Origin: a phage
Reading direction: 5' to 3' (one strand)
Length of the DNA stretch: 64,000 nucleotides
Sequence record: PV636258.1
The notes under the pieces were generated by a model, which searched no databases, was not told the DNA's origin, and saw only the letters and a program-made list of their open reading frames with translations. Shown here piece by piece: positions 61,160 through 63,943 of the stretch (its first letter is position 1; each line of letters opens with the position of its first letter). A program made the translations under genes and the position numbers.

Positions 61160-61174
61160 CCCCTAAAAGTAAAA

Positions 61175-61196
61175 ATCCCCAACGTTTGTTGGGGAT
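61175..61196 (-). terminator. Stem-loop (ATCCCCAAC/GTTGGGGAT)
   Basis: 9-bp perfect inverted repeat followed by T-tract on the minus strand. Confidence 0.5.
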
Positions 61197-61202
61197 CTTC
61201 AG

Positions 61203-61520
61203 TTACTTGCGCAGGGCAACGACGAGTTCAGCTAACTCTCCGAGGGTAGGATCATCTCCATGTTTACCCACCCACTCGTCACTAATTTCTACATCGTACT
61301 CTTCTTCGATTTCCATGACCAGCTCAATCATGTCAAGATCGTCACCGCCGAGATCATTCTTAACCCGTAACGGCGCTAAAGCATCGATATTATCATCAAT
61401 GTTATCAAACTTGTCCTTGTGATCCCCGTTGCGCCAAGTTTCCATGTTCAGGTTGTCACAAGCGTACTGAGCCAGAACACGCATTACTTCAACATAAGTT
61501 GGTTTGTTTGACATAAGCAT
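61203..61520 (-). CDS. Acyl-carrier-protein-like protein with Asp at the phosphopantetheine-attachment position
   Basis: LGGDDLDMIELVMEIEEEYDVEISDE aligns with ACP helix II (GADSLDTVELVMALEEEFD); codons GAC GAT CTT GAC confirm D-D-L-D. Confidence 0.5.
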   Translation of the reverse strand: MLMSNKPTYVEVMRVLAQYACDNLNMETWRNGDHKDKFDNIDDNIDALAPLRVKNDLGGDDLDMIELVMEIEEEYDVEISDEWVGKHGDDPTLGELAELVVALRK

Positions 61521-61533
61521 ATCTCAAAATGAA

Positions 61534-61549
61534 GGCGGGTTTCCCCGCC
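61534..61549 (-). terminator. GC-rich stem-loop (GGCGGG/CCCGCC)
   Basis: 6-bp inverted repeat between the vWA gene stop and the ACP-like gene start. Confidence 0.35.
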
Positions 61550-61557
61550 AGTTGAAT

Positions 61558-63774
61558 TTAGATTTTGACTTCTTTTTCAGCCAGTTCGGCAGTGACGGTG
61601 TATTTCACCCCATCAACTTCCACATCCATAGTGGATTCTTCCAAATCCAGGTCGGTAAACCAACCATGGCCTGCAACAATCCCATAAACTACCTTGGACA
61701 GCGTTTTGTTCAGGGCGCGGACTTCGTTGATAGCTGCTTTTGCTGCGTCTCCGATCCAACTTTCGATCAGCTTTTTCTGAGTCTCTTCCGGTACGCTGGT
61801 GATCATCGGTGATTTAACGAATGCATTGTATTCAGCCAGGGCATTAGCGATCAGCTGATCAGCGACATTCAGTTTTTTACCGTCCGTCTGTTTTTTGATA
61901 ACAGACGCGATGCTCGGCAGTGAAGATGCGCCTTTGATTTTCACATTCAATTCACGACTCATATAGACATCGGTTGATTCTACAGAAGAAGTCTTCGGTG
62001 AAAATCCATAGTCGCGAATGCCGTTTGCTGACAGGAAATCAGCCGCTTCTTTGCCATATTTTGAAGCCAGACCAGTAGCGTTGCCTTTGCCAACCAGTTC
62101 ATCACGGTAGAATTTCAGAACTTTCTGTTTTGCCTTCAATGCTTCACGGCGCACATTGTCTGCAAAGAATTCAGCAGCACTGATATTCTTTGTCATGGCG
62201 CGGTTAACCATTGGGACACTTTCCAGATTTACAATGAAGACTTCCGGCCCACCAAACACATGAACACCCATGGCAGTCAAATCCTGTGCCACCTTAGCCC
62301 GAACAATCGGAGAATCTGCAGTGATAGGCATTGTTTTCAGGTTGATGATACCATCCTTGACAATAGTGTAATTACGATAACGCCAGGTTCCCAGCTCTTC
62401 AGGAAGTTCATATTTCTTCTGTACAAACTCAGGCACAACAACCGTTCCGTGTTGAACTGTCTGCACACTGATGTTAGGACGTTCTGAATTATAGACCAAA
62501 TTGCTGATCGGGACAATCCCTTTATCATCTGCTGGATTGAATTCGGGGGTCCAATCTTCGTGCTCGGCCAGTTTGAGCGCCAGGGCTTTACGCTCTTCTT
62601 TAGAAGTCGCATTCGCAATCTCTTCGGCCAACTTGTCTTCGGTGTCATCAACTTTCTGTACAGTACCGCGCCCAATGCTCTTGTAAGAGAATAGCGGATG
62701 CTTGGTGACGATAGAGACATCTGCTTCAGCCAGATACGTCAGAACATCAACAATGGTGGTGGCGTCTTCAGCCGGAACCATATTATAATCGATGCCATCA
62801 ACTCCTCGCAGAGATTCGTCTACGATAGCCTGAGTCAGATCGACTTTGATGTTGGAATAGTCCTGCTTGGTGAAACAGTTGCTGTATTGTTTGATGAAGC
62901 GGACGTCACCCGTCTTCTTCAGCGCGGCCCAGACCAAATCGGCGTCCATGGTGTACACGCCATAGAATGCCAGCACGTATGCCGCCTGGGTGTCTGCCAG
63001 ATTATCCAGCTGGTCGATCATGTTGGGGTTTACAACCCACAGCTGAGAAACGCTTTCAGGGATGCTGACGTGGCCAATAGGGTGCTCTTCATCAGGATGC
63101 ACGGCTAAAACAGTCGCCACACCATTTTCAACATAAATGGCATGGGTGTAAACCAGGGGAACATCGACCACCACTTTCGGTGAAGAAGTTTTCAGCACGT
63201 TTTCCAATTCGGTCTGATATTCATTCTGGCCTTCGGCGAATACGTGGGTCGCACCAGAACGTTCTGCCATTAGCCCCAGCAGTTCGCGATTACAATACCA
63301 ACCGTATTCGATGAAGGTAATGTTATCAAACGCTTTGGGCAGTACTTCAGCGGCATCCAGGATTTCATTAGAACGCCAGCAGTTGTCATATCCGTCGGTC
63401 ATGAATGCCAGGTTATTAACATAACCAGGTTTATTCAGGCTAATGGCAGTTTCCGCAGCCAATTTCAGCGGCTCAACAAAACCAGTACAACCAGAAGGCT
63501 TCAGGAAACGGTCAATTAGATTATTGATCTCACTGAGATCAGTTGCACTGTTAATCTGACGTCCGGCAAATACCGTTCCGAAATCACCGCGAGATGAAAA
63601 GTAAAGGATGCTCACAGTATCTTCCGGTTTCACCAGGGAAGGCAGGTTCTCCTTCAGATGCTTACGGACTTCTGGAAGTGAACGATACATGGAACCGGAG
63701 ATATCCACAACGATTACATGGTTAGACGGCGCGACGGTCGCAACCGCATTCTTAAATGTTAATGATTCAATCAT
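61558..63774 (-). CDS. Large von Willebrand factor A (vWA) domain protein
   Basis: From the ATG at 63774 (738 aa): N-terminal MIDAS-type motif VIVVDISGSM; the track 5' extension is implausible. Confidence 0.55.
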   Translation of the reverse strand: MIESLTFKNAVATVAPSNHVIVVDISGSMYRSLPEVRKHLKENLPSLVKPEDTVSILYFSSRGDFGTVFAGRQINSATDLSEINNLIDRFLKPSGCTGFVEPLKLAAETAISLNKPGYVNNLAFMTDGYDNCWRSNEILDAAEVLPKAFDNITFIEYGWYCNRELLGLMAERSGATHVFAEGQNEYQTELENVLKTSSPKVVVDVPLVYTHAIYVENGVATVLAVHPDEEHPIGHVSIPESVSQLWVVNPNMIDQLDNLADTQAAYVLAFYGVYTMDADLVWAALKKTGDVRFIKQYSNCFTKQDYSNIKVDLTQAIVDESLRGVDGIDYNMVPAEDATTIVDVLTYLAEADVSIVTKHPLFSYKSIGRGTVQKVDDTEDKLAEEIANATSKEERKALALKLAEHEDWTPEFNPADDKGIVPISNLVYNSERPNISVQTVQHGTVVVPEFVQKKYELPEELGTWRYRNYTIVKDGIINLKTMPITADSPIVRAKVAQDLTAMGVHVFGGPEVFIVNLESVPMVNRAMTKNISAAEFFADNVRREALKAKQKVLKFYRDELVGKGNATGLASKYGKEAADFLSANGIRDYGFSPKTSSVESTDVYMSRELNVKIKGASSLPSIASVIKKQTDGKKLNVADQLIANALAEYNAFVKSPMITSVPEETQKKLIESWIGDAAKAAINEVRALNKTLSKVVYGIVAGHGWFTDLDLEESTMDVEVDGVKYTVTAELAEKEVKI

Positions 63775-63943
63775 CGTTTTGACCTTTTTGGGCTTTGGAG
63801 TGTTTGGAGTTCGCGTCGGCGTTCTCCAGCATAGTTTCAATGAAATCCCGGTTGTTTTCCATTTGGGCGACCAGAACATCACTGGGACGGAATGAATTGT
63901 CAAGACAATCAAGTCCGGCGCGTTTTAATTTGTTGTCGGTCAT
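63767..63943 (-). CDS. Small hypothetical protein
   Basis: 58 aa from the ATG at 63943 (track start is TTG); stop overlaps the vWA start. Confidence 0.25.
   Translation of the reverse strand: MTDNKLKRAGLDCLDNSFRPSDVLVAQMENNRDFIETMLENADANSKHSKAQKGQNDD

Follow-up and report, generated by a model that had tools for sequence, protein, structure and literature searches.

An acyl carrier protein-like protein of Kuttervirus phages with an acidic residue at the carrier serine site, and its vWA-domain neighbor

We analyzed a 64,000-nucleotide stretch of phage DNA (sequence record PV636258.1; hereafter the window) and, within it, two adjacent genes: a small open reading frame (ORF) of 105 amino acids at 61203..61520 whose product resembles acyl carrier protein (ACP), and, immediately upstream, a gene for a 738 amino acid protein with a vWA domain at 61558..63774. 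The small ORF is predicted, from its sequence and from modeled structure, to encode an ACP-fold protein in which the serine that carries the phosphopantetheine arm is replaced by aspartate. Since Asp or Glu stands at this site, the protein is very probably not phosphopantetheinylated at the canonical position and unable to carry acyl groups, and we refer to it as a pseudo-ACP. Both ORFs called in the initial annotation were present with the same ends, on the minus strand. That annotation had viewed the two genes against the T4 core set, which was wrong: a T4-type context was rejected because the region, over 3.2 kb, matches Salmonella phage Chennai (MN953776), a Kuttervirus of the family Ackermannviridae, with 100% identity; its identity to more than 100 further Vi01-like phages is 95-99%. 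Some GenBank records label the two products 'acyl carrier protein' and 'putative vWa containing protein'.

The initial annotation had noted that the small protein matches ACP helix II almost residue by residue. This held up, since a hand count on the alignment gave 19 of 27 positions identical to Bacillus subtilis ACP over helix II and the following loop, and the homology to ACP was significant. The protein matched the PP-binding family of Pfam (PF00550) at 30.7 bits against a cutoff of 20.8 (E value 3.7e-7), PHROG 4154 'acyl carrier protein' at an E value of 1e-56 and, in a sequence search of the PDB, chains of B. subtilis ACP at an E value of 4.6e-8. An AlphaFold2 (AF2) model based on an alignment of 21 homologues had a predicted local distance difference test (pLDDT) score of 88.8 and placed helix I at residues 9-23, helix II at 61-75, helix III at 81-86 and helix IV at 93-103, with a long, partly helical insertion between helices I and II (residue numbers follow the 105 amino acid ORF throughout). 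All 50 of the 50 best Foldseek matches to this model in the PDB were ACPs, with target-normalized TM-scores up to 0.82, so that the structure prediction proposed in the initial annotation returned the four-helix ACP fold.

Like bacterial AcpP (PF00550), the pseudo-ACP is a four-helix bundle that matches the Pfam family above threshold and is very acidic (pI 4.16, with 26 of 105 residues acidic, against pI 4.05 for Escherichia coli AcpP), and it shares with AcpP the helix II/III motif D-x-L-D-x-x-E-L-V-M-x-x-E-E-x-[FY]...I..D. It differs from AcpP in having Asp/Glu in place of Ser36 and hence no cofactor attachment, in an insertion of approximately 22 residues between helices I and II, and in an extra W-x-G-x-x-G-D-D-P-T segment before helix IV. 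The NCBIfam ACP models aligned to residues 52-83 only, with E values down to 1.8e-10, and the scores were about half of the AcpP cutoffs: the curated AcpP equivalog score was missed (37.5 bits against 70.45; TIGR00517 and related models), and the best ACP subfamily model gave 40.5 bits against a cutoff of 71.

The residue aligned to Ser36 of E. coli and B. subtilis ACP is Asp61, which, like Ser36, is the first residue of helix II. Its codon is GAT at 61338..61340 (minus strand), as the initial annotation had read it, and helix II, the equivalent of the ACP recognition helix, occupies 61296..61340 (minus strand) with the pattern D-[DE]-L-D-x-I-E-x-x-M-x-x-E-E. We aligned 32 family sequences, consisting of the copy in the window, 20 representatives of clusters at 90% identity, nine sequences from a library of 1.84 billion proteins, and two distant members of the family, one from Serratia phage 3M and one from Erwinia phage Bue1. 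The serine-equivalent position was Glu in 23 and Asp in nine of them and nothing else, which excludes a sequencing error as the source of the Asp, and no column with a conserved serine, or rich in serine, was found anywhere in this alignment. The invariant core of the family is D-[DE]-L-D-x-I-E-x-x-M-x-x-E, while the 'DLG' motif, helix I and the insertion drift across the 32 sequences. Four ACP homologues of other phages (ICP1 gp97, phiRSL1 ORF083, P-HM1 ACP and pf16 gp58) are likewise small ACP-fold proteins encoded among early or accessory genes, but they keep D-S-L-D and could become holo-ACP, whereas the Ackermannviridae family never has the serine. Because these homologues keep D-S-L-D, the acidic residue appears to be a derived, lineage-specific state. 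ICP1 gp97, considered as a well-studied homologue, was rejected as a different kind of protein on the same ground, and the database protein P0291, considered as a relative, retains the serine and is a normal ACP. The serine of the mitochondrial ACP of Plasmodium is replaced by a hydrophobic residue, not by Asp or Glu.

The pseudo-ACP family is under-annotated. For example, in Erwinia phage vB_EamM-Bue1 (MG973030) an uncalled ORF directly downstream of the vWA gene (L010:12316-12612) encodes a divergent pseudo-ACP (..AMDELDYIEFIMELED..; E value 5e-8 with a hidden Markov model). Where the gene has been called, databases label it 'acyl carrier protein' and file it under auxiliary metabolic genes, which gives a misleading idea of function in this phage family.

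The residues that the family retains point to how the protein may act. In the alignment of the phage family with E. coli and B. subtilis ACP, residues D56, L57, G58, D60, L62, D63, E66, M69, E72, I79 and D81 were invariant and E73 was nearly so; the ACP counterparts of the shared residues are D35, D38, E41, M44, E47, E48, I54 and D56. The helix II/III surface is where real ACPs dock onto partner proteins, and because the shared residues sit in helices II and III, which we take to be the docking surface here also, binding to ACP partner proteins is plausible. The initial annotation had suggested that such a protein could mimic holo- or phospho-ACP and bind ACP partner enzymes without carrying acyl groups. 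The part of this that concerns the protein itself stands, in that an ACP fold is combined with loss of the carrier site, and the conserved Asp/Glu is compatible with mimicry of a phosphorylated residue; the binding of a partner is a plausible step that we infer from the retained surface. The chance that the pseudo-ACP acts by docking on an ACP-binding partner seems to us about even.

AcpP is a highly connected hub of the enterobacterial cell, with roles in fatty-acid, lipid A, biotin and lipoate synthesis and connections to MukBEF, SpoT and IscS. The pseudo-ACP, which is conserved in the Ackermannviridae, would work by protein-protein docking during infection. It would sit in a binding site for ACP, the most plausible being one on a host AcpP client for which the pantetheine arm is dispensable, and would act there as a non-acylatable stand-in or competitor of host AcpP, with the acidic side chain replacing a phosphoserine or a helix cap. 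Taken as a whole, docking at an ACP-binding site as a stand-in or competitor for host AcpP is the best explanation that we can offer, and we offer it tentatively. That the docking partner would be a host protein is possible, although we hold this with some reserve; a host partner is likelier than a phage metabolic one because fatty-acid, lipid and phosphopantetheinyl functions are nowhere mentioned in the paper on Vi01-like phages that we searched. The requirement for Asp or Glu could reflect phosphoserine mimicry, metal ligation or helix capping, all of which are possible. It is interesting to speculate, doubtful as it is, that the pseudo-ACP is a dedicated decoy of host AcpP, in which Asp/Glu would imitate the phosphoserine of holo-ACP while helices II and III fill the ACP site of a host hub protein that can do without the pantetheine arm. 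Candidate targets for such a decoy, named here with the same doubt, would be MukB, AcpS, PlsB, SpoT and IscS, and the host function concerned would be rewired or shut down. If true, the decoy would be the first phage-encoded ACP mimic and would represent a new kind of host-takeover protein, made by disabling a cofactor-carrier fold.

Docking that does not involve the cofactor is feasible, because precedents exist. The ATPase of MukB is stimulated equally by apo-AcpP and holo-AcpP (PMC8602292), and T7 gp5.9 inhibits MukBEF (PMC7617805), to which AcpP also binds. The mitochondrial ACP of Plasmodium and other apicomplexans has kept its fold after loss of the cofactor and serves as a purely binding subunit, still binding Isd11-Nfs1 in Plasmodium (PMC8547962), although it is a eukaryotic organellar protein with a LYR-protein partner. 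A cofactor-less ACP-fold protein therefore has a precedent in apicomplexan mitochondria, whereas the phage case is undescribed in the literature that we searched, which yielded no paper dealing with the missing serine or with what either gene does. T7 gp5.9 and Ocr offer a further parallel as small acidic phage proteins that imitate a host macromolecule, as we propose for the pseudo-ACP, although they mimic DNA while the pseudo-ACP would mimic ACP, a protein cofactor. Biocontrol of Salmonella and E. coli O157 makes wide use of this phage family, and the family's conserved, non-carrier copy of ACP suggests a simple way of manipulating the host that is not described in the literature searched. 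Neither the pseudo-ACP nor the vWA protein matched any counter-defence or defence model of PADLOC-DB at E values up to 0.1.

Acidic residues at the serine position were also found beyond the phage family. When the family profile was searched against 1.84 billion representative proteins, the best 150 matches yielded 186 aligned ACP-like domains. In 51 of these the serine was replaced by Asp or Glu, a fraction biased upward by a profile that favors such sequences. Several of these Asp/Glu-type domains have a C-terminal motif like the G-D-D-P-T of the phage family. Many others, found in metagenomes from soil and elsewhere, are preceded by an N-terminus that resembles a signal peptide or lipobox; examples are P0213, P0216, P0223, P0236, P0262, P0263, P0274 and P0278, and the bacterial-looking soil contigs L018-L021, where one such gene lies beside a glyoxalase gene. 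Such sequences suggest that non-carrier ACP-fold binding modules, some of them apparently exported, may form a broader class that has gone unrecognized.

The product of the upstream gene (chennai_164; PHROG 2426, function unknown; minus strand) has the Rossmann-like alpha/beta fold of vWA domains. Pfam identified the vWA domain alone, at residues 20-182, and together with the secondary structure of the model this places the domain at approximately residues 17-195 (63190..63726, minus strand). The N-terminus reads ...VVVDISGSM, in which the initial annotation had recognized a metal ion-dependent adhesion site (MIDAS). The motif proved to be complete: in an alignment of 59 homologues reaching down to 34% identity, D24-x-S26-x-S28 (63691..63705, minus strand), T97 and D127 (T-D-G) either never vary or are at least 90% conserved. 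This conservation speaks for a metal-dependent interaction of the vWA protein with an acidic ligand. A beta-sandwich follows at approximately residues 196-250 (63025..63189, minus strand) and, with the vWA domain, resembles the trunk and barrel of Sec23/24 and archaeal ArnB. The remaining C-terminal region of approximately 490 residues (61561..63024, minus strand) is predicted to be mixed alpha/beta with a confident fold (pLDDT mostly 80-95) and contains many invariant motifs in the 59-sequence alignment; it gave no Pfam match in any of the 59 members, no PDB sequence or profile match beyond chance and nothing informative in the viral structure library.

The combination of a vWA domain with a beta-sandwich is also found in ArnB (8s05_B, 5a8j), the trunk and barrel of Sec23/Sec24, ITIH1 (6fpy) and a Catenulispora vWA protein (4fx5). 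In contrast to this group, the 738 amino acid protein is phage-encoded and cytoplasmic, has some 490 unmatched residues, and lacks a zinc finger, gelsolin or FHA-partner context. Viral pairs of a MoxR-type AAA+ protein and a vWA protein (Acidianus two-tailed virus and group 2.2 jumbo phages; PMC7824862) likewise feature a virus-encoded vWA protein as a possible adaptor, but here there is no peptidase fusion and no MoxR-type AAA+ protein in the scanned flanks, where Pfam found none among the ten flanking ORFs and the annotation names none within 12 kb. A MoxR-vWA chaperone pair was rejected on these grounds and since none appears in the paper on Vi01-like phages. A role of either protein as a virion component was also rejected: when virions of Sajous1, a Vi01-like phage, were analyzed by mass spectrometry in published work, the vWA protein (gp185) and its ACP-like neighbor (gp186) were each represented by one peptide, whereas structural proteins had hundreds (PMC10892097).

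The initial annotation had further raised the possibility that the two genes form a host-takeover or anti-defence module. We found no positive evidence for a two-gene module, as each gene occurs without the other and the two evolve at unlike rates. The vWA family was present in 505 phage records and the ACP-like gene in 271, and the vWA family reaches Straboviridae (KP15, RB43 and Morganella phage Mm5) as well as Alishewanella, Shewanella and Rhizobium phages. No ACP-like ORF was found within approximately 5 kb of the vWA gene in KP15, Mm5 and the Alishewanella phage, nor within approximately 10 kb of it in Shewanella phage Thanatos-1, in an Aeromonas-associated contig (L012) whose vWA protein is 65% identical, and in contig L013. 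Asp/Glu-type ACP-like genes in other phage-like contigs follow small ORFs and not a vWA gene; three such relatives from outside the Ackermannviridae (P0155, P0158 and P0188) lie on contigs of 0.9-2.7 kb with phage-like gene packing and no vWA gene immediately upstream. In Serratia phage 3M the ACP-like and vWA genes are 0.9 kb apart with three ORFs between them. Over the same four genome pairs the vWA proteins were 77, 71, 56 and 51% identical and the ACP-like proteins 34, 40, 41 and 33%, so that, by sequence identity, the vWA protein evolves far more slowly than its neighbor.

The immediate downstream placement of the ACP-like gene extends to two divergent metagenomic Ackermannviridae contigs (L009 and L016) and to Bue1, where the ORF is uncalled. 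Such adjacency says little because the whole region is syntenic in the Ackermannviridae, and it is best read as reflecting this synteny and not an obligate module. In all-against-all BLAST comparisons of the flanks of Ackermannviridae and T4-like phages, the vWA gene was the only gene in common, and a set of conserved vWA neighbors shared by the two groups was rejected on that result. The vWA protein is best read as the product of a separate gene, more widespread than the pseudo-ACP gene, essentially absent from virions and MIDAS-competent. It is a widespread phage protein to be studied in its own right, and its value to the present question is mainly negative.

Several points weigh against a role of the pseudo-ACP in docking on host AcpP clients. 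Helix capping alone could account for an acidic residue where helix II begins, and the fast divergence outside helix II could merely mean weak constraint. The best PDB match was B. subtilis ACP rather than an enterobacterial ACP, and for this reason there is no sign of recent capture of a host gene. In addition, the gene keeps its place directly downstream of the vWA gene in very divergent Ackermannviridae (Kuttervirus, L009, L016 and Bue1).

The first two of these points lead to an explanation in which the acidic residue is only structural, a helix N-cap or dipole stabilizer, and the protein is an ACP-derived scaffold turned into a generic acidic adaptor or chaperone for some phage protein, unrelated to ACP clients. 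We regard this as unlikely. The protein does diverge rapidly outside helix II, Asp/Glu-for-Ser domains are common outside the family (the 51 of 186 domains given above), and many of these are bacterial with signal-peptide or lipobox N-termini, presumably out of reach of cytoplasmic ACP enzymes. However, the query profile itself has Asp/Glu at that column and biases the search toward such matches, and a purely structural role leaves unexplained why nearly all charged helix II/III residues shared with ACPs stay fixed in a protein whose 'DLG' motif and helix I drift. The conserved gene order leads to another explanation, in which Asp/Glu at the tip of helix II completes the Mg2+ coordination in the MIDAS of the neighboring protein, making the pseudo-ACP a subunit or regulator of the vWA protein. 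Ligands of MIDAS domains, such as those of integrins and anthrax receptors, supply Asp or Glu to the metal ion, and these are the only two residues that the site tolerates in the pseudo-ACP; moreover, the MIDAS is intact and conserved, and the pseudo-ACP gene adjoins the vWA gene downstream in Kuttervirus, L009, L016 and Bue1 and is 0.9 kb from it in Serratia phage 3M. Yet the MIDAS is equally conserved in vWA orthologues of phages that have no ACP-like gene nearby, some Asp/Glu-type ACP-like genes have no vWA gene upstream, a terminator-like hairpin lies between the two genes, and the very unlike evolutionary rates and the synteny of the whole region, which makes adjacency little informative, also argue against a complex. 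A complex of this kind appears to us quite improbable.

The small size and acidity of the protein (pI 4.16, 26 acidic residues in 105), and the position of its fast-evolving gene among accessory genes, would also suit a DNA mimic of the Ocr/gp5.9 type that blocks host DNA-binding defence proteins. This is very unlikely, since E. coli AcpP is equally acidic (pI 4.05) and the charge is thus inherited from the fold, the Pfam, PHROG and PADLOC searches showed no likeness to known DNA mimics, and the charge, as inferred from sequence, is on one helix and does not form a DNA-like array. Least probable of all, and hardly to be expected, is that the label 'acyl carrier protein' in GenBank and PHROG should be taken at its word and the protein be either a working carrier modified elsewhere or the decaying, functionless remnant of a captured ACP gene. 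The family lacks any conserved serine and scores far below the NCBIfam ACP equivalog cutoff (37.5 against 70.45 bits), and an intact ORF with helix II invariant down to approximately 33% identity is unexpected for a pseudogene.

The gene order on the minus strand is the vWA gene (63774..61558), a GC-rich hairpin, the pseudo-ACP gene (chennai_163; 61520..61203) and an intrinsic terminator, so that two stem-loops bracket the pseudo-ACP gene. The intergenic hairpin at 61534..61549 (minus strand; GGCGGGGAAACCCGCC, followed by UUCAUUUU) was identified by a scan for terminator-like sequences and by RNA folding and is the short hairpin that the initial annotation had placed between the genes. It is the weaker of the two stem-loops, with a 6-bp GC stem and a folding energy of -15.6 kcal/mol (z -2.9), and reads as a weak element, terminator-like or RNA-stabilizing. 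The terminator at 61170..61201 (minus strand), just past the stop codon of the pseudo-ACP gene, is strong by RNA folding (a 14-bp stem and U-tract, -22.5 kcal/mol, z -4.8, with 0 of 200 shuffled sequences folding as well), and was missed by the consensus terminator scan. The pseudo-ACP ORF begins with two in-frame ATGs (MLM...). The GenBank coding sequence and all homologues use the second, at 61514 (MS.KPTY), which is better spaced from an upstream GAG than the first; the true start is probably 61514, giving a product of 103 and not 105 amino acids.

A small ORF of 58-70 amino acids shares a few bases with the start of the vWA gene, both in the window (63767..63943, minus strand) and in two divergent Ackermannviridae contigs (L009:2732-2944 and L016:5541-5747). 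The overlap suggests translational coupling to the vWA gene, and the product of this ORF may be a more natural candidate for a vWA partner than that of the ACP-like gene. In two relatives, genes of the NAD-salvage type are inserted just upstream of the vWA gene (L016:2987-5502 and L012:4489-6288). One insert consists of phosphoribosyl pyrophosphate (PRPP)-synthetase-like and NAPRTase-family genes and the other of genes for a NadR-like CTP-transferase/AAA_28 protein and a PnuC-type nicotinamide mononucleotide transporter; accessory cargo, possibly for counter-defence, seems to concentrate in this stretch as in a hotspot. Three phages that carry the vWA gene but not the ACP-like gene have a DNA methyltransferase gene within 1-2 kb of it: KP15 (L003:2391-3317, cytosine-type), Mm5 (L005:8257-9138, cytosine-type) and Thanatos-1 (L011:12800-13621, D12-class, MethyltransfD12). 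This proximity could be a coincidence within early-gene clusters.

In Chennai, a 5-hydroxymethyldeoxyuridine (5-hmdU) DNA kinase gene (PF18723, E value 3e-80; L001:20368-21570) lies in the same gene string approximately 5 kb upstream, past the end of the window, beside genes for a DUF8224-type protein of 672 amino acids, a DUF3268 zinc-finger protein and a gp49/66-RyR protein. The kinase brought up a possible link of the two genes to thymidine hypermodification. This was unsupported, as the 5-(2-aminoethoxy)methyldeoxyuridine (5-NeOmdU) pathway of ViI-like phages has been reconstituted with gp67, gp160, gp226, gp243 and gp247 only, and neither a vWA protein nor a carrier protein is mentioned in that paper (PMC8989533).

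The host or phage labels of three records met in this analysis (MN871475, OR844942 and CAKLQH020000007) look unreliable. The records named 'Pseudomonas phage Pa-sanjiao' (96% DNA identity) and 'Enterococcus phage Efm 3-10' (90.5% protein identity) carry Kuttervirus sequence, the identities being those to the region analyzed here, and contig 7 of 'Acinetobacter phage MD-2021a' carries a bacterial rpmF-fabD-fabG-acpP operon.

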